IMG/VR virus record: IMGVR_UViG_3300032132_000001
Location: 362,573-395,473 of that record
Length of the DNA stretch: 32,901 nt
Origin: a virus
Reading direction: 5' to 3' (one strand)
In this document: positions 119-32,495 of the stretch, in pieces
Numbering within the stretch: position 1 is the first letter of the stretch
Layout of the letters: each line of letters opens with the position of its first letter
Position numbers and translations under genes: made by a program
The notes under the pieces: generated by a model
The model's database searches: none
What the model saw: the letters and a program-made list of their open reading frames with translations, nothing else
What the model was told of the DNA's origin: nothing

Positions 119-820
119 ATGAGCGGCAAATACATCATCATCGAGGGAATCGATGGCAGCGGTAAAACCACTATGTCCGAGAGACTGGAAATGTGGTTGG
201 CTGACCAAGATGTCCCATCGAGGTATACGAGGCATCCAGGCGCGACATCATTCGGCGGTGAGATCAGACGACTCACTAAAGAATACGACCTAGATCCTAT
301 CACAGAAGCTCTTCTGTTTGCGGTGGATAACAGTGCGTTTACCCACCAGATCCTCAGACCGAACTTAGCGGACGGTACGTGGATCATCGCAGACCGGAGC
401 AACTTCATTTCGTCTCTAGCCTACCAGATCGCTTCCGGTTGTTCAATCGATGATCTGGATAGGGTGCATGACGCTATTCCTTCTCCACCAAAGGCTGACT
501 TGCTCATCATTCTACGAGCAAACCCAGATGTGGTGAAGTCACGCGTCATGGGTCGTGGGGGTGTGGGCAAGGACCGCTTCGAACAGAAGATGAACGAAGA
601 TCGTACGTACTTCAGCAAAGTAGCGAAGGCATACGATATGATGCTTGACGAGCCGAACAAAGAGTTCCAGCACAGACTCTCTAAGTTCGTCAATCTCACT
701 ACGACCACACCACATCCAGTCCCTCGTTGCCTTGGGATCGACGCAAACAGATCCGAAGACGAGGTATTCGCTAGTATCGTAGAAACTGTAAAGCCACTAC
801 TATCACCTGTGTCTGTATAG
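119..820 (+). CDS. tmk: thymidylate (dTMP) kinase
   Basis: N-terminal P-loop IIIEGIDGSGKTT typical of Tmk; LID-region basic residues; SD AGGTGAGG 6 nt upstream of ATG119. Confidence 0.9.
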   Translation: MSGKYIIIEGIDGSGKTTMSERLEMWLADQDVPSRYTRHPGATSFGGEIRRLTKEYDLDPITEALLFAVDNSAFTHQILRPNLADGTWIIADRSNFISSLAYQIASGCSIDDLDRVHDAIPSPPKADLLIILRANPDVVKSRVMGRGGVGKDRFEQKMNEDRTYFSKVAKAYDMMLDEPNKEFQHRLSKFVNLTTTTPHPVPRCLGIDANRSEDEVFASIVETVKPLLSPVSV

Positions 821-863: not shown

Positions 864-1427
864 ATGAGAACGGAGGAAGACGTGAGCGAAGTCTATCAAC
901 ACCAGATTGAGTCGCTGGAAGAAAAGATCTCCATTCTGGAGACAGCGCTCTCTGATCTACAAGCTGTATTCACACCGACTATCAAAGTCAAATTTGTAGA
1001 TGACGAGGCAAAAAGTCTCGGTCTACCCCATCATCGCAAAGCTGGTGACGCTGGGGTAGATCTCCACGTTATTCTTAGCCCGGAAGATAGAGACAATGGA
1101 CTCACCATCTTTCCCGGCGAGCGGAAACTCCTAGACACCGGGATGCATATGGAATTCCCACATGGTGTTTTCGCCAGAATTTCCCATCGCTCTTCGACCG
1201 AAAGGCGACGTCGCCTGCGAGTGGTCGAAGGAACCATAGACCAAGGGTTTCGCGGCAGGCTATTCACCCAAGTCTCTAATGACAACACGTTCCCAATCGT
1301 TGTGGAACATGGTGAACGCCTGGCGCAGATGATCCTGTCTCCCATAGTTCACGGCTATTTCAGTGAAGTAACTGAATTGGCCGATTCGGACCGAGGGGAG
1401 GCTGGTTTCGGTAGCACAGGTAGGTAA
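864..1427 (+). CDS. dut: dUTP diphosphatase (trimeric dUTPase) with ~40-aa N-terminal coiled-coil-like extension
   Basis: Motifs AGDAGVDL (motif 1), GTIDQGFRGRL (motif 3), GERLAQMIL (motif 4), RGEAGFGSTG (motif 5). Alternative start GTG882 has strong SD GGAGGA 872-877. Confidence 0.85.
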   Translation: MRTEEDVSEVYQHQIESLEEKISILETALSDLQAVFTPTIKVKFVDDEAKSLGLPHHRKAGDAGVDLHVILSPEDRDNGLTIFPGERKLLDTGMHMEFPHGVFARISHRSSTERRRRLRVVEGTIDQGFRGRLFTQVSNDNTFPIVVEHGERLAQMILSPIVHGYFSEVTELADSDRGEAGFGSTGR

Positions 1428-6600: not shown

Positions 6601-7360
6601 GGTTCTGTTCGTCGTGGATGTCCTGCAGGAGATCGGCAAAGGGTCGTAGAAACTTGACATATGGGTCATCGTCAAGTGCAACCTGTCCGTCGAAGTAGAT
6701 GGACGGAGTGTTAGAAAAAAGAGCCTGGTGGACCTCACCAGGGTGAGCATGAATCAGATCGTATCTAGCTAGAGCTTCACGAGTCGCGTCGATGCATAGG
6801 AGTTCTTGATCTGCGGTGACCAGACGTGGGTTGTACGATGCTTGCCATACGAACTTGTAACGTCCAAACGGCTTCAGATCGGCTGTGTCGATAGCGAATA
6901 TTGATAGGTCATAATAGTCGGCGTCTGGATGGTATACAATCCGATCTCTAGCTCCAGGCCCGTCTAGCATCCCTCGTTCAAGAGTGTACTCGAAGAAGTC
7001 CCCGTCTACCGCGTCGAAGAAATCCTTCTCCTCTCCGGTTTCCTGGTCGAAGAATATCTGCCCTTCAAGTGGGATAGCTGTCCTGCTCAGTTCTAGATCA
7101 GAAACGGTGACGACAAAGCGCTCAAGGTCCGGTACGAAGATGCCCTTATTCTGGAAACCAGCAACTGGCACCAACCCTGGCGCATCTTCAATGAAGTATC
7201 GGAGATCGAACACACCGGAGTTTGCTACCGGAGCGTCGTTTATCCTAACCCATGGAACTACTAGGACGATAGGGAGATTAACTGGTTGCAAGCCTGTCCT
7301 ATTATTTTGAATAGGCCATCTTACAAATTCTGGTTGGAATCGATCGGTTATTTCAGCCAT
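3608..7360 (-). CDS. large virion structural protein (1250 aa) with P2 gpI-like baseplate/tail domain; Cys-rich C-terminal region
   Basis: Segment LIPYLAYLVGWELPYFPGSTDEIRRNVLKNARRLQQLKGSRRVLVELFEIFGF matches the conserved core of phage tail protein I (P2 gpI, baseplate wedge) family; size comparable to T4 gp7-class wedge proteins. Confidence 0.55.
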   Translation of the reverse strand: MAEITDRFQPEFVRWPIQNNRTGLQPVNLPIVLVVPWVRINDAPVANSGVFDLRYFIEDAPGLVPVAGFQNKGIFVPDLERFVVTVSDLELSRTAIPLEGQIFFDQETGEEKDFFDAVDGDFFEYTLERGMLDGPGARDRIVYHPDADYYDLSIFAIDTADLKPFGRYKFVWQASYNPRLVTADQELLCIDATREALARYDLIHAHPGEVHQALFSNTPSIYFDGQVALDDDPYVKFLRPFADLLQDIHDEQNLLEGVNFVNRIPQQLIPYLAYLVGWELPYFPGSTDEIRRNVLKNARRLQQLKGSRRVLVELFEIFGFMVAIRNLWYNEDGSGFQAPNEDQITEEETCRTEPLVSDFSEDGFGQIVVPLLFRPTSDVTVDAYLVDIGSAAEAELQAISDSVDDMPESVEGVCALDLDGYLLSPALASISPPILGFSKVLIDLESGQGTDDRQVNDAPLNKVGLRYGSDNNVITVTFDHYIDFDRSRQKLFIFATYLYDKLVVPPELQNLQSNRFDIQILSVQGEEPTSQLYEFLLDFVLRLKAFHSLLRKIIILIDCCEVYNVQDFCLGGLNKQAPGTDAGELQTPPAIIPLDPTECDDDRGFSQETLDLRAKIIAGLENEHQTWKDLDGTHVVPEEQRAELEALSNVAIPRPDASPCEFTPAGQDRVISNGEKDFDHIADDRSKLCSTQGNSDDYCYKGRVQTPVEIDRCLIATELLRCKPCNLGMGHGAYYTTPIVPEQVGTFADDRCDRSSIGVSFLHTLFARVKSYQGATLHYTDRDQFRNDLVDSNEFFAIRRPSLDIQKDNLFFPGHRFVSMNKLENDFVSIYSYRPWDDIFHKCPEAIGTDKPTIEDLNPLIVEGTDGDEFLTFEDIPLEYCGNGLVPDISSLSVHAHRDFLVTHAIYSTAEPRAVSTDPVVFEQTVFTDVDAICLGSGVPPIFESANENCACPPDAIDESGSEPAGVDFANGYPAETGRYEADLADFDYPRGTSEDVDVTLLLGVPQGGGEGTEGVDLLFKCGSGILVAKDDPRAHLYAPYRLDCGCETFGCDPTNPSEEEATIDRCSVELFRLPDSSLDFNCDRVTTDLFMVLTEKFGTCSTKVDGTIPNMLCFDETAIDLEFEEKYPEQGQFKLVDDYGIIYIGMFETSGSRIDITVTTLDPRVWGEPPSGRVEGRRVFRRGIVTTCRQIIEHTDDGYIILAEGCEQRIDEFQTNFVCGDEFPQDPFAFHVDCGVCDEVEMELVEVTG

Positions 7361-7369
7361 AGCATCTTT

Positions 7370-7972
7370 ATGTATCTGAGTCGCATGAAGCCATCACAAC
7401 GTGCACGTGAGATTTTACGAGCGGAAGCACAAGCTATCCTTAATGTACCTTTGTCGGATGAGTTCGACAAAGTGGTTAACTTGATAGCTCGCATGGGCCA
7501 TAGAAAAGTACTTCTCACAGGCATGGGTAAAGCCGGGAATATCGCAAGGAAGGTCACTGGAACTCTCTGTTCCACCGGAACCCCAGCCTGCTTCCTTCAC
7601 CCTGGAGAAGCGGCTCACGGCGATCTCGGGCTTGTCTCTCCAGGCGACCTGCTGCTGGCCTTCTCGACCAGCGGGAAAACTCGCGAAGTACTGGAGACGA
7701 TCCAGCTCGCCCGCCGTCTGGGTGCTTCAACGGTGGTCGCCGTCACTTCACATCCAGACGCGCCTATCCGAAACCTAGCCGACTATGTTCTAGAGCTAGG
7801 AGAGATAGAGGAGCCGTGCTATCTTGGTCTAACGCCCACGGCAAGTACGACAGCTATGCTTGCGCTCGGAGACGCCCTCGCCCTTTGCATAATGGGCAAG
7901 AATAATATCAGCAAAGAGGACTATGGGCTTCGTCACCATGGTGGTTACCTAGGCGAAATAGCCAGAGAGTGA
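7370..7972 (+). CDS. kdsD: SIS-domain sugar-phosphate isomerase, KdsD/KpsF (arabinose-5-phosphate isomerase)-like, lacking CBS domains
   Basis: [37 protein letters not shown]...[11 protein letters not shown] is near-identical in pattern to E. coli KdsD SIS domain ([37 protein letters not shown]...ISNSGES). Start chosen at first ATG (7370; alt 7385) rather than TTG7286, which would overlap divergent gene. Confidence 0.75.
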   Translation: [200 protein letters not shown]

Positions 7973-10051: not shown

Positions 10052-10408
10052 ATGGGTACAGGATGGTATACCGGACGGTTTCAACCGCTACACGCAGGTC
10101 ACATCAAGTGCATCAGGTATATCCTAGAAAAGGAAGACCGATGCATCGTGATTCTACGGGACACTGATCAGAGCGAGCGAAACCCTTTCGGAGTGGACGA
10201 ACGCAGAACCATGCTAGAGAAGGAGTTCTACCAAGAACTCCAGGATGGTAGAGTGATCGTCATCGACTCTCCAGACCCAGACTGCGACCTGACGGTCTAC
10301 ATCGGACGCCAGGTAGGATACGACCTCATCCAGCTGGATGCGGCTACTGAGGCCATCTCAGCTACAAATATCAGAAAGAAGCTATACGGAGAAGAAGATG
10401 GCAGTTGA
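10052..10408 (+). CDS. nucleotidyltransferase of the (H/T)xGH superfamily, archaeal/NadM-type NMN adenylyltransferase-like (short, 118 aa)
   Basis: GRFQPLHAGH (HxGH motif) , RNPFGVDER, and ISATNIRKKL (ISxTxIR motif) match M. jannaschii NMNAT pattern GRFQPFHKGH/ENPFTAGER/SGTEIRRRM; SD GGAGGTG upstream. Confidence 0.7.
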   Translation: MGTGWYTGRFQPLHAGHIKCIRYILEKEDRCIVILRDTDQSERNPFGVDERRTMLEKEFYQELQDGRVIVIDSPDPDCDLTVYIGRQVGYDLIQLDAATEAISATNIRKKLYGEEDGS

Positions 10409-10958: not shown

Positions 10959-11831
10959 CTATGACCTTAGGGCTGGAGCAACGTATTCCCGACCTAGAAA
11001 TTGGAATACCTCCTCTTCTTCCCGAAATCGGTGAGCTTCGCCTTCCCGGAAGAGACCGTATTCGTTTAGACACCAACCGTCCTGTTTGATAGACGCACGC
11101 AGTGTCTTGTTGAAGTCTTTGCTCCCGGTCATGTGGAGTAAGGCCGTCCCCCACTGCGAGCGATCGATTATGTTTAATTCTACGCACGCGCCGTCCGTTA
11201 CAATAGCACACTTGCGCTTCCCTTTTTCAACAATCGGCCCAAGGCTGCAGAAAGTGTCGATCGCTTCGGGGCTCTCAATGAGGATGTCTATATCCCCAAC
11301 TGTTTTGGATTCCCGGCGCAAGGAGCCGGCGCACTTCATTTCGAAAGGTAATTGATCGGCTACTTTGGTAAATATACTGTATGCATCATCCCAGCAGATT
11401 CGCTCGGTTGAAATCTGCAGTCTTGCGGATAGAGTGGGGTTATTTATCTTTCCGACTTGGATTAGCTGTAGTAGACCTGTTCTTGTTGTTACTCGGTGCT
11501 TACGGTATAGCTTCTTTGCTGTCTTTATACCTATACCCTTAACACTCATGAGATCCCGCAGATCGCCATGCCTCTTAATCTGCTGGTTTAGTTCTCTCAG
11601 CTCGCCAGTCTCTAGGATCTCTATAATCTTAGCTGAGATCTTCTTCCCAACACCCGGGATATCGGCAAGCGCGACGTCGTCGAGCGGCCGTCGAAGATCC
11701 TCAATGTTCTCTGCAGCCTTCCTATAGGTGCACTGCAGGTATTTGAGGTTTTTGAACTTACTCATTGACAGAGTAAGATACTCCGTATGGGTACGGAGGA
11801 TAGACACCACAAGCGCGTTACTCGGATCCAC
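10959..11831 (-). CDS. DNA polymerase family X (Pol beta-like) minimal polymerase, ~270-290 aa
   Basis: 8-kDa/HhH region YRKAAENIEDL...DIPGVGKKISAKIIEILETGEL; second HhH VKGIGIKTAKKL; catalytic GSLRRESKTVGDIDILI (two Asp), LLHMTGSKDFNKTLRASIKQDGWCLNEYGLF and C-terminal YVAPALRS all match Pol beta/Pol X motifs. Track start is GTG11831; ATG11765 (MSKFKN...) plausible. Confidence 0.8.
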   Translation of the reverse strand: MDPSNALVVSILRTHTEYLTLSMSKFKNLKYLQCTYRKAAENIEDLRRPLDDVALADIPGVGKKISAKIIEILETGELRELNQQIKRHGDLRDLMSVKGIGIKTAKKLYRKHRVTTRTGLLQLIQVGKINNPTLSARLQISTERICWDDAYSIFTKVADQLPFEMKCAGSLRRESKTVGDIDILIESPEAIDTFCSLGPIVEKGKRKCAIVTDGACVELNIIDRSQWGTALLHMTGSKDFNKTLRASIKQDGWCLNEYGLFREGEAHRFREEEEVFQFLGREYVAPALRS

Positions 11832-13460: not shown

Positions 13461-13877
13461 TCACCATGTCCGTCCGATAGTGAGATGATACTTGGTCTTT
13501 GGTGTCTCATCGAGACCAAGCTCTATTCTTATCTCAGCAAGTCGGTCAGAGAAACAGTCAACGAAATAGTAGCTATCAGGTCGGTCCCAGCCGGTCGTAT
13601 CCCCGGCCTGGCGGATCAAATACTTGTATTCGAAGGTTATGATCTCGCCGTCGTGCTTCTTCCACGCTTCAAGATTAGGCGGTTCGATCCCGCGCACAAC
13701 CGAGAGGTGGGCGCCCCACGAGGGTTTGTGGAGCTTTACTTCTTGGTGGATCAAGATTTGGTGGCGGAAATAACGGCAGAGATCCTCACAGGTCTCCAGC
13801 ACAAGCCACCATGGATTATTGGATTTTAGGCCCGGTCGTTCCGGGTTATAGACGAGTTTTCCGCTGCACCGTAACAT
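13461..13877 (-). CDS. 2H phosphoesterase superfamily protein (LigT/CPDase/Acb1-like), 138 aa
   Basis: Two H-x-[ST]-x motifs flanked by hydrophobics: AHLSVVRG (~aa 57) and YHLTIGR (~aa 131), ~74 aa apart, the hallmark of 2H phosphoesterases. Confidence 0.6.
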   Translation of the reverse strand: MLRCSGKLVYNPERPGLKSNNPWWLVLETCEDLCRYFRHQILIHQEVKLHKPSWGAHLSVVRGIEPPNLEAWKKHDGEIITFEYKYLIRQAGDTTGWDRPDSYYFVDCFSDRLAEIRIELGLDETPKTKYHLTIGRTW

Positions 13878-14334: not shown

Positions 14335-14757
14335 TTATCCCTTTAGGTATTCTAATGCTCGCCTGTAGTTTCCTTCTGTCATACAGACGACTGGGTCGAT
14401 TTCTACGAAATTGTCCATTTTGTAAAGAGGTAGGTCATCTAGAATAGTATACTTCACGTCTGGATGAAGCTCTAGCCATTCGCAGATATCGGCCTCCCTA
14501 CGTGCGTTGGGAGATAGTTCATATGAAGTCCATTCTTCATGTAGAAGAATCTCTAGATCTATCCCGTTTTTCTGGAACAGATCAATTACTACATCTTTCC
14601 CGCAACCGACCCATGTACTAGAGACGACAACCTTAGCTCCCGATTCCTCGATCAGGCAAAGAAGAGCCGACTTTGCTTCTGGGACGAAGATCTGGCTGCT
14701 TGGATCAGCAGCAGAAATGAGTACTCCGTCGATGTCGAGGAATATTACTTTGTCCAT
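14335..14757 (-). CDS. HAD-superfamily phosphatase (140 aa)
   Basis: Motif I IFLDIDGVL (DxDGV), motif II VVVSSTW, motif IV ILDDL. Start at ATG14757 (TGATG overlap with upstream gene); track ORF starts further upstream. Confidence 0.7.
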   Translation of the reverse strand: MDKVIFLDIDGVLISAADPSSQIFVPEAKSALLCLIEESGAKVVVSSTWVGCGKDVVIDLFQKNGIDLEILLHEEWTSYELSPNARREADICEWLELHPDVKYTILDDLPLYKMDNFVEIDPVVCMTEGNYRRALEYLKG

Positions 14758-15065
14758 CAGATTCCAAAGGTCCAAACCATAGCAGTGGCCCAAGCAAGAG
14801 TGCCAGCCACTATGAAAATGGCGATGATCAATAGCCCGTAAGCGAACAACAACCCCAAGCAGGAGTGCAGGGTCATAGCGAGCGCGAACAACATGCCACG
14901 CCATCCATCGTTCTCAATGGACTTGAGCGACATTTGAAGTAAGCCGAATTCATCGTCTGGGCCTTCTCCCAAAAGCACAGTGCGCCAAGCATCTATCGCT
15001 TTTGGGAGAAGTATGATGTAGCTCACGGCAACCATGAAGACTGCCCAGTCAGCCCAGGTGGTCAC
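14757..15065 (-). CDS. small integral membrane protein (3 predicted TM)
   Basis: Hydrophobic segments AVFMVAVSYIILL, LFALAMTLHSCLGLLFAYGLLIIAIFIVAGTLAWATAMVW. Confidence 0.5.
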   Translation of the reverse strand: MTTWADWAVFMVAVSYIILLPKAIDAWRTVLLGEGPDDEFGLLQMSLKSIENDGWRGMLFALAMTLHSCLGLLFAYGLLIIAIFIVAGTLAWATAMVWTFGI

Positions 15066-15454
15066 TACAGGTTACCTTCCACGTGGTACCTGCACAATGA
15101 TCTAGGACCAGTAGTGGCTTTGTGGATGGTCTCTTCGCAAGAGAGGCACTCCACCTTATATCGTCTCCTCCCTGTATCGCAACCGATCAGAGAAGTGGGG
15201 GTCACCTTGAGTTGATGGCCCTCGATGAGGAACTCTACCATCTCAGGCGGGCCGGCATCGGAATAAATGCCAGTCACATCCGGCCATGGGAAATCGTATG
15301 TGGGTTCCGTCATCTCTTTGACTTTTCTGACCCAAGCTTCGCAGACCGGATGAAACGACTCATCTGGCATGGATACCTGGTCAAGAAGCCCGTCCACCAT
15401 CTTCGCACCCTCTTTCAGAAGTTGAAGAGCTTCATCTAACTCGCTTTGCGGCAT
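15065..15454 (-). CDS. hypothetical protein with C-terminal Cys/His cluster (possible zinc-binding)
   Basis: Start at M17 (TAATG overlap with clpS stop); C-terminal C..C..H..C..C..H. Confidence 0.45.
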   Translation of the reverse strand: MPQSELDEALQLLKEGAKMVDGLLDQVSMPDESFHPVCEAWVRKVKEMTEPTYDFPWPDVTGIYSDAGPPEMVEFLIEGHQLKVTPTSLIGCDTGRRRYKVECLSCEETIHKATTGPRSLCRYHVEGNL

Positions 15455-15786
15455 TATCCGTCTACCTTCTCGATTGATGCGCCCATCGAGCCCTTGCTCC
15501 ACGCGAGACGCCGGTCAGCGCCCCAGGCATGGATCTGGTCCCGCTTCAGTTCGCAGGTTTCTAGCTGTCCACTGTATACCACGGCTTTCCCGTCGTTGTC
15601 CAGAGTCTCCGCCATGCCGTATGCCTTGTCCTCGGTGTGGCCGAAGAGAACGCGCAGCATGTTGATTACGTAGTAGTATGAGTGGTCCTGGTCATCGTAT
15701 AGTACGATAATCCATGGTTTTTGTGTCAGAGTGTCAGTATCAGTGCCGACGTCTTCCACTGTATCAGTCATCGTTGCCATCGTCAT
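15454..15786 (-). CDS. clpS: ClpS-like ATP-dependent Clp protease adaptor
   Basis: KPWIIVLYDDQDHSYYYVINMLRVLFGHTEDKAYGMAETLDNDGKAVVYSGQLETCELK aligns position-by-position with E. coli ClpS core ([29 protein letters not shown]...[21 protein letters not shown]); SD GAGGTGA upstream. Confidence 0.75.
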   Translation of the reverse strand: MTMATMTDTVEDVGTDTDTLTQKPWIIVLYDDQDHSYYYVINMLRVLFGHTEDKAYGMAETLDNDGKAVVYSGQLETCELKRDQIHAWGADRRLAWSKGSMGASIEKVDG

Positions 15787-16531
15787 TAGTCACCTCTATA
15801 TAAGGGCTATCGTGTTGCGTGGAGAAGAAGTAGCAAGTTCCAATTAGGATCTTCATAAGGAAACGGTCGAATTGATCCAAAATCCCAAGCGCCCGGTGGT
15901 GCATTTCATTCACTTCCAGTGTGTCTAGCACATCGGTGATAAACCTACCCCACCAATCTGGAGTTCTTGTGATGTTTAGCACACCGGGCAATCCTGCTAC
16001 CCAACTATTGATTATTGCTTCTTTATCTTTATCGGTCCTGATCTTTTTCATGAACTGGACGCAGTAAGCAACCACGTTCGGTGGCGCATTTTGCGACGCT
16101 TTATCATATACATCTGGATCAAGATGAGTTGTCAGCTCGGCCTTCTCTAGATCGAGGAGTCCGAGATATCTTCTTACGTCTCGTTCAGTGATCTCATCTA
16201 CAAATCCGCCAGGACACAGAGTGAGAACAGTGTTCTCCTTGTCCTCGATTTCGAACTTGCTGAAGAGCCATTCTGTGGAGACGTCAAAGGGGCAGAGGAT
16301 CATTGGAATTTCCAAGATCCTCCTTGCCCCTGATAAGCCTATAGTCTGTACATAGTCGTCCCTAGTGAGCACTACCGAATGGTACTTCTGCTCATTATAC
16401 TCGTAGGACGTCTCGAAGACTGGGGTTACATCGGTGATCTGCTCTAGGAACAGTTCGTTCATGCGAGCAAATTCTTGTTGAAGCTCTTCGGTGGTCTTAG
16501 CTTCTACCGAGTTCTCTTGTTTGCCATCCAT
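15764..16531 (-). CDS. hypothetical protein (~255 aa) downstream of helicase
   Basis: ORF; start taken at first ATG after helicase stop region. Confidence 0.45.
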   Translation of the reverse strand: MDGKQENSVEAKTTEELQQEFARMNELFLEQITDVTPVFETSYEYNEQKYHSVVLTRDDYVQTIGLSGARRILEIPMILCPFDVSTEWLFSKFEIEDKENTVLTLCPGGFVDEITERDVRRYLGLLDLEKAELTTHLDPDVYDKASQNAPPNVVAYCVQFMKKIRTDKDKEAIINSWVAGLPGVLNITRTPDWWGRFITDVLDTLEVNEMHHRALGILDQFDRFLMKILIGTCYFFSTQHDSPYIEVTNDDGNDD

Positions 16532-17468
16532 CTCTTGATCTACTCGACACGTATCTCTTATTCGGGGTAACAACCTGACGCATCAGCACTTTCGCACGAG
16601 AAGCGTAAGGCAGGGCCTCCACGAGGTTACAGTTTAATTTACCCTTGTAAGTGCGCATCGCACGCCCAGCCATCTGGGTCAGCATGCTCTTGCTCCGGGT
16701 GTTCCGGGCCACGACCACGCTCTTCGTGCACGGGAGGTCGGTTCCTTCCGTCAGAATCAGGCACGAGAACAGCACGTCCACCTTCCCGTCTTCGAAATCC
16801 TGGAGCTGTCGCTCCCGGTTCGATTTGCCGGTGACAATGGTGGTTCTCATCTGAAGCTTCTCAGAGAATTCTGCTCCTGCAGCCTTGGTCGGCACGAACA
16901 CAATGGTCGGACCGAGCATGCTCTTGTGAGCATTCATCCAAGACGGTAGCACTTCAAGGATATCACCCTTACACCGGACAGAATATACCCATGGTGGTGC
17001 CAGGTATCCTTCTGCAACGAGCTGGTCGATGGAGATCCCAACGACCTGCGCATCAAAGTAGAGGGTTGCGTTGTCTTCGCGTTTGGGCGTAGCGGTCAGA
17101 CCCAAGAACCGGTCGAAGCGAAGCCTATCCTGTAGATCCCGGATGGTGCTGCAAGACTCGTGGTGAGCCTCATCTAGCACCACCAGGTCGAATTTGCCCC
17201 AGGTCGGGTCCGGTCGCTTGAAGACAGAATGGAATACTACGTCATTCCGGCCAAGTTTCTGGAATGACTCATTGGCCTGTTGGAGGAGTCGTCTACGGTG
17301 GGCTAGCCACAGTACCTTGCGGTAGGGCCTGCAAAGCCCTGCCGCAGCAGTGTAAGTCTTACCTCCACCGCACGGCAGGACCGCAAGCACCCGCGCAGCA
17401 CCAGATTGGAAGATTTCGTAGACGGCATCCGTCATATCTTCCTGGTACCAGCGGAGTGATGTGAACAT
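16497..17468 (-). CDS. superfamily-2 DEAH-box DNA/RNA helicase (323 aa)
   Basis: Motif I LPCGGGKT, motif II VVLDEAHHE, motif III LTATP, motif VI QMAGRAMR; N-terminal LRWYQ typical of type III-res/Rad25-like helicases. Confidence 0.8.
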   Translation of the reverse strand: MFTSLRWYQEDMTDAVYEIFQSGAARVLAVLPCGGGKTYTAAAGLCRPYRKVLWLAHRRRLLQQANESFQKLGRNDVVFHSVFKRPDPTWGKFDLVVLDEAHHESCSTIRDLQDRLRFDRFLGLTATPKREDNATLYFDAQVVGISIDQLVAEGYLAPPWVYSVRCKGDILEVLPSWMNAHKSMLGPTIVFVPTKAAGAEFSEKLQMRTTIVTGKSNRERQLQDFEDGKVDVLFSCLILTEGTDLPCTKSVVVARNTRSKSMLTQMAGRAMRTYKGKLNCNLVEALPYASRAKVLMRQVVTPNKRYVSSRSRDGWQTRELGRS

Positions 17469-17966
17469 TTAGTCCTCTTCAGCTAGATCCTCATACACCT
17501 CATCGAGGATTTCGGCGAACTGGTATAGTTCGTGATGGATCGCTTTGCGCGGACTCACGTCGCTCCAGCGCTCCAACGCCCAGAAGAAGGGGCGCAGCAG
17601 GATCGGCGTGCGGCAGATCCAGTCTGCGTACTTCCGCAGTGCGTTGGCGGTCAGGCTCACGTCGAGGATCTCCTCAGCGGTGTCCTCACCATAGAACTGG
17701 ACCAATCCGTCGATCAGATTGATTACCGAGATCTCGGCAAGCTGCTGCTTGCCTACGATACCATCCGTCATGAGCTTGACAGCCGCAGGCGCGACCACAT
17801 TACTCATCAATTCTGCAAGGGCCAGGTTCTCATCCTGGTCCAGAAAAGGTGCCGGCTTGCTGCTCTGGTGATGCTTGAACAGCGTGGTTGCGCTGTGTTG
17901 GAACAGCGTGGTGGCAACCGGACGTCGAATCAGGGCGTCTGCCAAGTTCTTTGGTGTGATTCTCAT
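17469..17966 (-). CDS. hypothetical protein (165 aa); weak resemblance to all-alpha MazG-like NTP pyrophosphatase
   Basis: ATGA overlap with purA/purZ-like stop and TAA-ATG abutment with helicase: operonic. Segment AEEILDVSLTANALRKY loosely resembles MazG E-x-x-D helix (EELGDVLFxL). Weak. Confidence 0.4.
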   Translation of the reverse strand: MRITPKNLADALIRRPVATTLFQHSATTLFKHHQSSKPAPFLDQDENLALAELMSNVVAPAAVKLMTDGIVGKQQLAEISVINLIDGLVQFYGEDTAEEILDVSLTANALRKYADWICRTPILLRPFFWALERWSDVSPRKAIHHELYQFAEILDEVYEDLAEED

Positions 17967-19108
17967 GTAAGTTCCATTACGTGGTGCATACTGTCGGGAC
18001 CAGTCCCGACCACAGTCACCGGGATTCCGGCGTCATCTTCCACCTTCTTGATGAAATCAGTCACCTTGGTCGATAACCTGCCGGGATCGTTGGTGCCATA
18101 GCAATCCCAATCGAGGTAGTTTGCGAAGTTGAGCGCGATCTTAGTCGCTCCCGTCACCATCACGGCGTATTGGAGCTGCGTGGCGGAGTAGGAGAACACG
18201 CGTCGCAGACGTTTGGTCACCGTGGTGAGTTCGCCCTTCGCGACGAGCGGCGGCGCTCCTGCTTCCCGCGTCACCTGTTCCCAGGTGATCTCATTCTGGT
18301 GAGGGTAGCAATCACCGGAGTATCCGACCGTCTTCCCGTCTTCCATTACGTTACCCACGCGGATGGGGAAGGGACGGATTACCATGTAGATGTCGCCAGC
18401 CCACTGGTGCGGTACACCCATGTCGGCCATCATCTGCATCGGAGTGCACTCTCGCGAGGTGCACTGTGGGTAGTGTGACCCGTGGTTGACTCCGAGGCTG
18501 AATCCCTGGCTCCCTTCATGCAACCAGGTGTACTCATTTTTCATCATGAGTATAACCTGTTCACTGAAGAGTGGGTAGACATCACCCTGAGCATCTTGAT
18601 TGGTCACTACACCCCAATCCAACATGTCACGGGCAAGCTTTACTTCAGCACCACGCATCAGCTTCTCAGCCTGTACCGCACCAGATCCCTGCATCGTACT
18701 AGCGATGTGCTTGGTATCGGTGCGCTCCATCTTCGCGTGATCTTCGGTGACGATCATCGCTCTCGGATGGATGTGTACTTTCTTACTTGTGGGGAGTTCG
18801 TCCGAGATGTAGTCACACTCTCGGAGTTCCTGCATTAGGCGTTCCACGGTGAACCCGGCACCAGCGCCGATGTAACACCTCATATCGTAGCCTAGCTTGT
18901 TGAGAATACAGCTGGCAGGAATCACCTTAGAAATGAACTTATATTCTTTGCCATTGACGTTACAGATGGCGGTGTGCCCTGCATTTGGTAGATTGGTCGT
19001 AGAAGCACACTTTACTCCATACTTCCATGCCAAGAATGTGGCGATGTTCCCTTTGCCAGTGCTACCCCACTGACCGTCAATTACTAGATTGAATTTACCT
19101 GCTTGCAT
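17963..19108 (-). CDS. purA: adenylosuccinate synthetase family protein (PurA homologue) with variant P-loop GSTGKGN; PurZ-like (2-aminoadenine pathway) candidate
   Basis: [21 protein letters not shown] vs E. coli [46 protein letters not shown] vs [31 protein letters not shown] vs ATTGRRRRTGW; ISTGPD-like VVGTGPD. Start at ATG19108 with perfect SD AAGGAG 6 nt upstream (track start 19150). Confidence 0.8.
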   Translation of the reverse strand: [381 protein letters not shown]

Positions 19109-19287
19109 GAACGGCTCCTTGTGTAGGTCCGTTTCAAATACTGCTGTCATAGTGGACCGGGCAGGATTTGCACCTTGCGTCTCTGTCTCCAGCGCTTTCC
19201 TTCTCGATAACCATAGGTGGGTTATAAGTTCCCCATCGTTCCAGGGGCTCCCACCCTTAGGGTCGCTAAGCTACCGGCCCAAATATA

Positions 19288-19326
19288 GTGATGGCCCGAT
19301 GGGAGTAATCCGCACCGGGCCATCAC
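19288..19326 (-). terminator. stem-loop downstream of cspA-like gene (11-bp perfect stem GTGATGGCCCG/CGGGCCATCAC)
   Basis: Inverted repeat 12 nt after cspA stop, followed on minus strand by TATATTT; candidate intrinsic terminator. Confidence 0.4.
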
Positions 19327-19337
19327 TTGGAAGACTG

Positions 19338-19538
19338 TTAGATCTTGCGAACGTTCTCTGCGGCTGGACCCTTCGGTCCTTCAACCACGTCGAACTCGAC
19401 TTGATCTTCTTCGTTCAGGGACTTGAAGCCTTCCATTTGGATGGCTTTGTGGTGGACGAACAGGTCCTTACCACCGTCATCGGGCTTGATGAAACCATAG
19501 CCCTTCTCATCGTTAAACCACTTCACTGTTCCACGCAC
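19338..19538 (-). CDS. cspA: cold-shock protein, CspA family (cold-shock domain)
   Basis: [15 protein letters not shown]...[11 protein letters not shown]...[27 protein letters not shown] is canonical CSD with RNP1/RNP2 motifs; GTG start with SD AGGAG 8 nt upstream. Confidence 0.9.
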
Positions 19539-31427: not shown

Positions 31428-32495
31428 TTATCGGCCGAACCATTTGTTAAAGATTCTGTCGTATGTCCCATTTTCTTCGATCTCCAGTAGTGCAAGATTG
31501 ATCCGTTCGCGGAGATCGGAGCCGTTTGGCATCATCATTCCATAGTACTCATAGTGGAAGATCTCCCCGATTTGGATCACTTTGCCGGAAGGGTTGTTGT
31601 TGACGTAGTAGTCAATGGAGGGTACGTCGAAGACTACAGCCTCGACTTTCCCTAGCTCAAGAAGCGCGTACGCCTCTTCGATTTTGGCGACTTCCATCAG
31701 GTGCCCGCCATACTCGCGTACGGCTTTAGCGCTTGTGGTGCCTGCCTTGGTTGCAACGAGAGCGCCCTTTAGGTCCTTGGGCGACTTGATCTTGTAATTG
31801 ACCTTGCTAACTGTGTAGTCGGCGCTTAGTTTGGCAATGAAGAGGCCAAAGACGATGATGCCGACTATGATGAGTAGCGATGTGCAGAATTTACCGAGTG
31901 GTTTCTTTGGTGTGATGTCACCATAACCCACGGTAGATGATGTCACGATGCAGAAGTAGATGGCTTGCCATATGCCAACTGTATACTGGTCGTCAATTGC
32001 ATTCTCGCCACGCTCCGAGAAGTACATGATGTGAGCTACCAGTAAGATAAAACCGATGAAGAGCAGTAATGGTTCAATGTAATTCCAATACTGTATTTCT
32101 TGGTTCGGCTCTTTCTTCTGCACCAGGATCCTCAACCCTGCATCCAGGTATCTGTGGGAGAAATCGTAATCTTTCTCTCTTTCCCCATTGATGGTGATCC
32201 CAGCAACAGCTAGTTGACCATCAATCCCATTGACTTTGTTGAATATGTCTTTGAAATTCTGAGCTTCCACATATTCAAACTCGATACCAGCCTGTTTGGC
32301 TACAGCTTCCCAGATGTCGATATCGAATCCGGTGTACTTGCCGTCGATCTTCATCACGCAAGGCTTGAACTCGTGCACCACGACCTTGACTGGATCAGCG
32401 CACGCATCCACTGCGAAGAAGAGAAAGAAGGCGATCAGGACGATAATCAACACAGCCCTAATTTGCCCAGCTACCTCAGTGATTTTAGGTTCCAT
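31428..32495 (-). CDS. GluR0-type prokaryotic ionotropic glutamate-receptor-like, ligand-gated potassium channel (SBP lobe S1 - M1 - pore TVGYGD - M2 - SBP lobe S2)
   Basis: Exact K+ selectivity filter TSSTVGYGDITP preceded by pore helix IWQAIYFCIV and flanked by TM helices LLLFIGFILLVAHIMYF and LIIVGIIVFGLFIA; N- and C-terminal regions have family-3 periplasmic solute-binding fold features (KVVVHEFKP..GFDIDIW; ALVATKAGTTSAKAV); signal peptide; SD AAGGAAAGG. Confidence 0.8.
   Translation of the reverse strand: MEPKITEVAGQIRAVLIIVLIAFFLFFAVDACADPVKVVVHEFKPCVMKIDGKYTGFDIDIWEAVAKQAGIEFEYVEAQNFKDIFNKVNGIDGQLAVAGITINGEREKDYDFSHRYLDAGLRILVQKKEPNQEIQYWNYIEPLLLFIGFILLVAHIMYFSERGENAIDDQYTVGIWQAIYFCIVTSSTVGYGDITPKKPLGKFCTSLLIIVGIIVFGLFIAKLSADYTVSKVNYKIKSPKDLKGALVATKAGTTSAKAVREYGGHLMEVAKIEEAYALLELGKVEAVVFDVPSIDYYVNNNPSGKVIQIGEIFHYEYYGMMMPNGSDLRERINLALLEIEENGTYDRIFNKWFGR

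Follow-up and report, generated by a model that had tools for sequence, protein, structure and literature searches.

A probable PurZ-type enzyme from a metagenome-only sister clade, encoded on a jumbo-phage-like contig away from the usual Z-cluster partners

Seven groups of cultured phages with 2-aminoadenine (Z) in their DNA are recognised. To our knowledge, the only Z-genomes shown are those of siphoviruses and podoviruses, roughly 40–80 kb in size, and in these purZ lies beside genes for dATP-removing and dGMP-supplying enzymes. For more than 2000 viruses, Z-DNA has been predicted from PurZ homology alone (PMC13128860), and the accessory enzymes of Z phages have been replaced convergently, a pattern described in 2026 as 'functional convergence' (PMC12884076). 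Here we analyse a purZ-like gene on a stretch of 32,901 nucleotides (nt; hereafter the window) taken from the IMG/VR virus record IMGVR_UViG_3300032132_000001 (positions 362,573 to 395,473). It comes from a jumbo-phage-like contig whose length is at least 177 kb. Judged from its sequence, the gene at 17963..19108 probably encodes a PurZ-family enzyme, i.e. an N6-succino-2-amino-2'-deoxyadenylate synthase, belonging to a sister clade of the characterised PurZ proteins. The gene and the sites on which this reading depends are as follows:

17963..19108, minus strand: purZ-like coding sequence of 381 amino acids (aa), with its ATG at 19108
19115..19120, minus strand: Shine-Dalgarno sequence AAGGAG, 6 nt 5' of the ATG at 19108, read from the sequence
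19046..19075, minus strand: phosphate loop of 10 residues including GSTGKG, with Ser for Asp13 and Thr for Glu14 of PurA, from the translation
18971..18985, minus strand: NAGHT motif with the catalytic His of the PurA superfamily, from the translation; invariant in all aligned sequences
18200..18226, minus strand: TTVTKRLRR loop, from translation and alignment (residue roles from PMC8342488 and bioRxiv 10.1101/2025.10.22.683976)
18116..18130, minus strand: NFANY, adenine-type phosphate-donor pocket corresponding to PhiVC8 N294-F295-x-N297-Y298, from the translation (residue roles from PMC8342488)

The open reading frame (ORF) as listed runs from 17963 to 19150 on the minus strand (395 aa), with an in-frame upstream ATG at 19150. 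Direct reading of the sequence revealed no comparable Shine-Dalgarno sequence before that ATG, and the consensus of 27 clade members starts at M15 of the 395-aa ORF ('MQxGKF'). With AAGGAG 6 nt before it and the clade consensus beginning at it, the ATG at 19108 is the best start, and the coordinates 17963..19108 given in a first-pass annotation of the window hold as the best gene model.

For the comparison of active sites, the query was aligned with MAFFT to three PurZ proteins (PhiVC8, S-2L, an Acinetobacter phage), two PurZ0 proteins (Wayne, Sapo), two PurA proteins (E. coli; P. horikoshii, from a PDB alignment) and the PurA-like protein of Bacillus phage vB_BpsS-140. Opposite the Ser of the query loop stand Asp13 in E. 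coli PurA, the equivalent Asp in P. horikoshii PurA (both QWGDEGKG) and Ser14 in PhiVC8 PurZ (QFGSTGKG). The exchange of the catalytic Asp for Ser, on which the first-pass annotation had built its case, is therefore no local alignment artefact; an upstream Asp is found in 'VIDGQW', four residues before the P-loop glycine, and PhiVC8 PurZ has the same Asp. The first-pass annotation named such an exchange as the signature of phage PurZ, and in a published survey Ser occupies this position in 100 % of the phage PurZ/PurZ0 sequences (147/147), whereas Asp13 is 99 % conserved among 251 surveyed PurA-group sequences. The complete GSTGKG loop is common to the query and to PhiVC8, S-2L and Acinetobacter-phage PurZ, while PurZ0 reads GSEAKG.

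Outside the Ser itself, the query is identical to PhiVC8 PurZ at T15, P233, Y244, W252, T262-T-V-T, S273 and N294-F295-x-N297-Y298, as it is at S14, and PhiVC8 F12 is replaced by another aromatic residue, W. Four of these positions (P233, Y244, W252 and S273) have been described as differentially conserved PurZ residues (PMC8342488; metaGPA preprint, bioRxiv 10.1101/2025.10.22.683976), and against the residue list published in the preprint the query shows W, S, T, Y, W, P and S, only G256 and P144 being different. S14, Y244, W252, T262 and N-F-x-N-Y are kept in all 30 sampled members of the clade to which the query belongs, whereas PurA and PurZ0 differ there. All residues reported to touch dGMP at its 2-amino group and ATP at its adenine are conserved in the query, and the Val of the PIRV motif, which clashes with a 2'-OH, is invariant in the clade. 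In the alignment the donor pocket reads N-F-x-(N/Q)-Y in PurZ, TMLDQ or SFADQ in PurZ0 and TKLDV or TMLDK in PurA; judged by F295, N297/Q308 and Y298 versus the guanine-specific Asp, NFANY of the query is of the PurZ type.

The same residues bear on whether the gene encodes an ordinary PurA, i.e. an auxiliary metabolic gene raising AMP synthesis from IMP with no effect on DNA. The fold is that of PurA: the NAGHT motif, the GSQG-containing stretch and the GTGPD motif listed in the first-pass annotation are all found in the translation, in agreement with a match to Pfam Adenylsucc_synt (PF00709; E 1.1e-29, 103.9 bits versus a cut-off of 27). Large phages often carry purine-metabolism genes, and no Z-cluster partners lie near this one. 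However, the query has Ser for Asp13, as have 30/30 clade members, and Thr for the following Glu, the GTP-specific (T/S)-x-x-D of PurA is replaced by N-F-x-N-Y (NFANY in place of TKLDV), and identity to E. coli PurA is 24 %. The PurA equivalog models score 45–181 bits against cut-offs of 368–700, bacterial PurA reaching 124 against 395. We consider an ordinary PurA highly improbable.

The best NCBIfam model for the protein is PurZ (NF038379) with 238.2 bits, ahead of archaeal-type PurA with 181 bits, and it matches PHROG 1211, '2-aminooxy adenylosuccinate synthetase', with E 5e-59. A sequence search of the PDB ranked PhiVC8 PurZ (6FM1, E 3.4e-50) before S-2L PurZ (2.8e-33) and P. horikoshii PurA (1e-30), with PurZ0 at 1e-18 and, further down, E. 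coli PurA at about 1e-11. Modelled with AlphaFold2 from the clade alignment (predicted local distance difference test, pLDDT, 83.9; predicted template modelling score 0.87), the protein matched 43 PurA/PurZ chains in Foldseek at E ≤ 0.001, the top matches being 6FKO/6TNH/6FM1, i.e. PhiVC8 'deoxyguanylosuccinate synthase' crystallised with dGMP and ATP, followed by compact archaeal PurA and then S-2L PurZ. Sequence and predicted fold assign the product of 17963..19108 to the PurZ type, not the PurA or PurZ0 type, of the adenylosuccinate synthetase superfamily.

The phylogenetic relationship was estimated by neighbour-joining with Kimura-corrected identity distances, 200 bootstraps and few outgroups. 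The query clade, the characterised PurZ proteins (PhiVC8, S-2L, Acinetobacter) and a separate PurZ0 clade were each recovered in 100 % of the bootstraps. The query clade and the characterised PurZ clustered together in 91 %, the addition of the Bacillus phage protein raised the value to 98.5 %, and all Ser-loop proteins were united in 99.5 %; the query clade never grouped with PurZ0 (0 %). Adding 23 IMG/VR loci changed neither the topology nor the motifs. The alignment and phylogeny proposed as a check in the first-pass annotation thus place the query outside ordinary PurA and within the Ser-loop group, beside PurZ.

Among 5.8 billion proteins there were 3276 homologues at E ≤ 1e-10, and the best 120 of these are all 50–61 % identical to the query, many of them from contigs of 100–400 kb. 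Contigs carrying a protein identical to the query measure 177 kb and up to 397 kb, and relatives are found on phage contigs of 75–408 kb. When 50,697 deposited phage genomes were searched with tblastn, every match came from the PurZ or PurZ0 lineage and none exceeded about 40 % identity, and a megablast of the 12 kb around the gene against the 50,697 phage records gave no match. Therefore, the clade has no cultured representative; by these searches and the tree it is a previously uncharacterised, metagenome-only sister clade of PhiVC8/S-2L/Acinetobacter PurZ.

Partners of a Z cluster were searched for in 52 kb (52,377 bp) of the parent contig, consisting of the window and its flanks L042 and L043. 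The phmmer references were DatZ (three), MazZ, PhiVC8 p26, DUF5664-DUF550, NDT, DutZ, DpoZ (two) and PrimPol, run with E up to 1 against a database of 577 ORFs. Over these 52 kb, DatZ was found neither as an HD, HD_3 or YfbR match nor by phmmer similarity to the three DatZ references, and MazZ neither as a PF04447, PF18909 or MazG match nor by phmmer; there was no PolA or PrimPol, the sole polymerase being of family X (Pol X). Likewise, Pfam annotation of the loci L001, L042 and L043 contained no DatZ, MazZ, DUF550, NDT, DpoZ or PrimPol. The first-pass annotation had seen no HD-domain DatZ in the window, in line with our family scans of the window, which found no HD-domain protein, and had warned that the cluster, if real, would be incomplete or elsewhere, which agrees with the lack of DatZ, MazZ and DpoZ in the 52 kb around the gene. 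The wider search that it recommended for DatZ, MazZ/DUF550 and PolA was run over these 52 kb and found none of them. The two genes of nucleotide metabolism that it had named in the window, a dUTPase and a thymidylate kinase, are both confirmed:

119..820, plus strand: thymidylate kinase homologue (Tmk; PF02223, E 4.8e-27), adjoining Dut
864..1427, plus strand: trimeric-type dUTPase homologue (Dut; PF00692, E 1.1e-18) with an N-terminal extension of roughly 50 aa

Tmk falls under nucleotide metabolism and is not known to be linked to Z. The presence of Dut leads to another explanation, in which the purZ-like gene encodes a GTP-using enzyme of the PurZ0 type found in actinophages together with DutZ and DmtZ, and the window's Dut is the DutZ partner. 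Every surveyed PurZ0 genome has dutZ, and the window's Dut shares 36–37 % identity with DutZ of Sapo and Wayne. However, it is at least as near to ordinary phage dUTPases (about 41 % to those of Bacillus phages) and lies 17 kb from the purZ-like gene on the opposite strand. The enzyme itself has GSTGKG and not GSEAKG, NFANY and not (T/S)-x-x-D-Q, and Y244 where PurZ0 has a gap; its identity to PurZ0 is about 30 % and 0/200 bootstraps group it there. A PurZ0-type enzyme is accordingly given very little credence. Considering the equivocal identities and that no published diagnostic residues were found, Dut cannot be assigned to DutZ. It clusters with Dut domains that are fused downstream of the purZ-like gene in two distant relatives (L035 and L036), and from its sequence it is possible that it serves as a dATP/dGTP-clearing analogue of DutZ.

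Directly downstream of the purZ-like gene lie two further genes on the same strand:

17469..17966, minus strand: orphan ORF of 165 aa, whose start overlaps the purZ-like stop (ATGA, 17966..17963)
16497..17468, minus strand: superfamily 2 helicase (ResIII and Helicase_C; Pfam and PHROG 16), with its start codon right after the stop of the 165-aa ORF

The helicase is probably in one transcription unit with the 165-aa ORF. The ATGA overlap reported in the first-pass annotation was read directly from the sequence. The ORF was suggested there as a possible partner nucleotide pyrophosphatase, i.e. a MazZ-like (d)GTP pyrophosphatase supplying dGMP. Besides the coupling, two points speak for this: the mazZ of S-2L overlaps purZ at its end, and an all-helical structure, like that of MazG-fold proteins, is predicted for the ORF. 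Otherwise the identification found no support. The ORF matched only itself among 5.8 billion proteins, had no match in Pfam, PHROG or NCBIfam, and gave no phmmer match with S-2L MazZ, PhiVC8 p26 or DUF5664-DUF550 in the 577-ORF database even at E 1. Its sequence has no EExxE...ExxD metal-binding motif, it is beside the purZ-like gene in 0/34 loci of clade members, and its single-sequence AlphaFold2 model (pLDDT 42.6) is too poor for a comparison of folds. We rejected it as a MazZ, an identity that we consider highly improbable.

On the other side, in the spacer of 187 nt between cspA and the purZ-like gene (19151..19337, minus strand), there is a perfect inverted repeat of 11 bp (GTGATGGCCCG / CGGGCCATCAC) that sits inside a longer imperfect repeat and is followed by GC-rich sequence. 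Scans for tRNA genes and Rfam families over the window, including this hairpin-rich spacer, gave no match. The inverted repeat may be a terminator or a regulatory hairpin.

To see in which company the gene is found elsewhere, 34 loci of clade members were compared, and 31 IMG/VR loci were checked for DatZ and MazZ over 10 kb either side. Canonical DatZ and MazZ were absent from all 31. About 20 of the 34 loci share a cassette in the order c3, c2, NDT, c1, (c13), c10, purZ-like, AP_endonuc_2-fold, c11, c6 (L009 1..21164, L014–L028, L032, L033, L037, L038, L041 and L048, on large-phage contigs), in which c1 has about 233 aa, c10 about 126 aa, c11 71 aa and c6 about 150–175 aa. Except for NDT and the AP_endonuc_2-fold protein, the members of the cassette have no Pfam or PHROG annotation, and by their conserved position they may be new enzymes of the nucleotide pool. 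In 18 loci, the distance from the purZ-like gene to the NDT-family gene (PF05014) upstream of it is about 1.5 kb. This family was tied to Z biosynthesis in 2025–2026, DmtZ being a dAMP hydrolase and transferase and NDT-M2 preferring dA.

The nearest relatives of the query (57–61 % identity) belong to T4-like phages, with gp13, gp15 and rIIA/B nearby (L049 8288..12279, L050, L010 8282..12327 and L051). Here, the purZ-like gene is located among genes for dCMP deaminase, a DnaQ-like exonuclease, ThyX, NUDIX and two Mom-like proteins (PF25680), and is translationally coupled to a DUF6378 gene. We found no described function for DUF6378 in the searched literature, and as a relative of DUF5664 it was rejected, BLASTP giving no alignment. 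Like c1, c10 and c6 of the cassette, it is a candidate for a hydrolase of dATP or dGTP. In three distant loci (L034 4101..4949, L035 11135..11830 and L036 11119..11883) an all-helical domain fused to Dut is encoded directly downstream of the purZ-like gene; the helical part resembles DUF1599 ('nucleotide modification associated domain 1'), by a weak match in L035 only, and this architecture is not that of the NDT-Dut fusion known from PurZ0 phages. The neighbour families of the relatives have no counterpart around the query. The purZ-like gene has evidently moved between phage lineages, and its helper set is not fixed.

Two loci carry inteins within the enzyme: L037 (6869..10507) has two, one after NAGH (NAGH|T) and one before CTSR, and L040 (9770..12025) has one at the CTSR site, each with a homing-endonuclease-like insert. 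Insertion at such positions is typical of essential, active enzymes, and by this analogy the inteins in NAGH|T and |CTSR argue that the purZ-like enzyme is active and important.

Several observations weigh against a PurZ-family enzyme serving Z-DNA synthesis. The first-pass call of a PurZ-like protein stands by loop, donor pocket, fold match and tree; nevertheless, the protein falls outside the characterised PurZ clade, to which its own clade is sister and not nested in a neighbour-joining tree with few outgroups, and its NF038379 score of 238.2 bits is below the curated whole-protein cut-off of 300. Identity to any characterised PurZ is at most 41 % (33–41 % to PhiVC8/S-2L/Acinetobacter PurZ), PhiVC8 G256 is not conserved, a longer insertion is present in the loop that follows PIRVG, and the 50,697 deposited phage genomes contain no member of the clade, which makes it metagenome-only. 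The surroundings add to this. Over the 52 kb, phmmer with the Z-partner references matched only the window's Dut, which is not assignable to DutZ (36–37 % versus about 41 % to ordinary dUTPases); NDT was not found, and profile HMMs of 18 families that recur next to the gene in relatives found no counterpart. Neither dATP-removal nor dGMP-supply enzymes were found in this region, the unassigned Dut being the sole candidate for the removal of dATP.

These points are shared by an explanation that keeps a PurZ-like enzyme and gives it a different substrate or purpose, e.g. another 2-substituted purine (GMP, dXMP or modified dGMP), another modification, or partial or conditional Z, with no classical, fully substituted ZTGC genome. 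Besides the separate clade below the PurZ cut-off, it would account for the lack of DatZ and MazZ in 31/31 IMG/VR loci and in the 52 kb here, for conserved neighbours that differ from those of Z phages and are mostly of unknown function, and for the Mom-like genes, annotated as DNA-modification enzymes, that flank the gene in T4-like relatives. The insertion follows the PIRVG loop, which is said to govern deoxyribose selectivity. On the other hand, the contact residues for the dGMP 2-amino group and the ATP adenine are all conserved, the Val of PIRV is invariant and S-2L PurZ also has an insertion at this place, the association with NDT fits the current Z pathway, and Z-phage accessory enzymes are known to be replaced convergently. 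A different substrate or purpose is therefore regarded as unlikely, if well ahead of the PurA, PurZ0 and MazZ explanations above, and we retain the reading of a PurZ-family enzyme, for which the conserved residues make dGMP, Asp and ATP the most likely substrates.

If it works as its homologues from PhiVC8 and S-2L do, the purZ-like enzyme would bind dGMP at the site where PurA binds IMP. The O6 of dGMP would be phosphorylated with ATP or dATP and the phosphate then displaced by L-aspartate, giving N6-succino-2-amino-2'-deoxyadenylate (dSMP). Host PurB and nucleotide kinases would convert dSMP to dZMP and dZTP, and dZTP would be incorporated opposite T. That the phage DNA contains 2-aminoadenine, fully or partly, is only weakly suggested, and a Z-substituted genome of this phage is plausible. 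Since full replacement of A by Z needs the removal of dATP, a mixed A/Z genome, or an unrecognised dATPase elsewhere in the genome, is possible.

It is tempting, if rather speculative, to see in this large metagenome-only sister clade an unrecognised reservoir of Z-DNA in very large phages (T4-like and jumbo, 75–400 kb) with non-canonical helpers. With similar reserve, the helper set might be NDT with the conserved unknown cassette in most relatives and DUF6378, NUDIX and Mom-like proteins in the T4-like ones, with no known dATP-exclusion enzyme in the phage studied here. If this is true, dATP is cleared by a new activity or the genome is a mixture of A and Z. If the enzyme is active, adenine replacement may extend to jumbo and T4-like phages, the accessory enzymes would have been reinvented once more, extending the 'functional convergence' (PMC12884076), and the conserved unknown neighbour proteins would be concrete candidates for new nucleotide-pool enzymes. 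The clade is also a target for dZ detection, e.g. by restriction-enrichment metagenomics or PacBio Z-Calling. The novelty is tempered by the Z-DNA already predicted from PurZ homology for the more than 2000 viruses mentioned above. In a literature search that was incomplete, we found no description of PurZ in jumbo or T4-like phages.

The remaining content of the window includes a 1250-aa tail protein and a BRCT/HhH protein. The genes for the ClpS adaptor (15454..15786, minus), the CspA cold-shock protein (19338..19538, minus), the family-X DNA polymerase (10959..11831, minus), a cytidylyltransferase/NMNAT-like protein (10052..10408, plus) and a SIS-domain protein (7286..7972, plus) are a host-like accessory set typical of jumbo phages. 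The flanks encode an Hc1 histone-like protein, patatin, APS kinase, an NAD-dependent ligase and PspA, and within the window a GluR0-like ligand-gated potassium channel (31428..32495, minus) has its solute-binding domain (SBP_bac_3, Lig_chan-Glu_bd) split by an Ion_trans_2 pore. Two separate small proteins on the minus strand match 'Swiss Army Knife' RNA-repair families, i.e. a 2H phosphoesterase at 13461..13877 (E 2.7e-4, below the cut-off) and HAD_SAK_2 at 14335..14904 (E 1e-16). These domain matches suggest an RNA-repair or nucleotide-phosphatase module about 3–4 kb downstream of the purZ-like gene.

Five 6-bp palindromes are almost missing from the 52,377 bp (observed/expected: GAGCTC 0/15, GTCGAC 1/17, CTCGAG 0/8, AGGCCT 0/7, CCGCGG 0/6), and the 4-mers TTAA, CATG and CGCG are under-represented as well. 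Avoidance of palindromes was rejected as a proxy for protection by Z, because only about half (about 53 %) of the type II enzymes are blocked by dZ-DNA and SalI (GTCGAC) is able to cut it, so that such avoidance cannot tell a Z genome from an A genome. The avoidance probably reflects host restriction systems and has no bearing on Z content.

Among the described systems, PhiVC8 PurZ (6FM1, 6FKO, 6TNH) is the best match of the query by both sequence and fold, and the fold, GSTGKG, TTVTK and N-F-x-N-Y are common to the query and to PurZ of PhiVC8, S-2L (7ODX) and Acinetobacter phages of the SH-Ab 15497 type. At 33–41 % identity, the query differs from these in its separate sister clade (100 % bootstrap) and in keeping an archaeal-type C-terminal segment ending in GTGP, which the PhiVC8 alignment leaves uncovered. 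The genomes are also of another order, at least 177 kb for the query and about 40–45 kb for PhiVC8, S-2L and the Acinetobacter phages, and datZ, mazZ and dpoZ are adjacent to purZ in the latter, whereas none is adjacent here.

With PurZ0 (Wayne, Gordonia Ghobes-type, 7VF6), the query shares Ser for Asp13, W252, T262 and membership in the Ser-loop phage group. PurZ0 has the GSEAKG loop and a guanine-type Asp pocket and travels with DutZ, DmtZ and DpoZ-1; the query, about 30 % identical, has none of these features, and the window's trimeric-type Dut is 36–37 % identical to DutZ, the dATP/dGTP diphosphatase of PurZ0 phages (PMC12884076). Compact archaeal PurA (P. horikoshii PH0438; 2D7U, 5K7X) has the same compact architecture, the same deletions and the 'GQWG' context, the highest target-normalised template modelling scores (0.89–0.90) and an end-to-end alignment that includes the C-terminal GTGP region. 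It differs in Asp13 and Glu14 (GDEGKG), a T-M-L-D-K pocket, the lack of Y244, W252 and T262, and the use of IMP and GTP.

The PurA-like protein of Bacillus phage vB_BpsS-140 is the closest full-length match among cultured phages (35 % over 97 % of the query) and shares, together with the IMG/VR locus L039, the Ser loop and the N-F-A-(N/D)-Y pocket. The loop of these two reads GSEGKG or GSEAKG, the vB_BpsS-140 protein has Ala at T262, their branch lies outside that of PurZ and the query clade, and no Z cluster is annotated around the gene in vB_BpsS-140. A PurZ homologue as such is thus not new; what differs from the known systems is the sister clade below the curated family cut-off, its occurrence in phages of 100–400 kb and, with the canonical neighbours absent, the different conserved cassette found in relatives.

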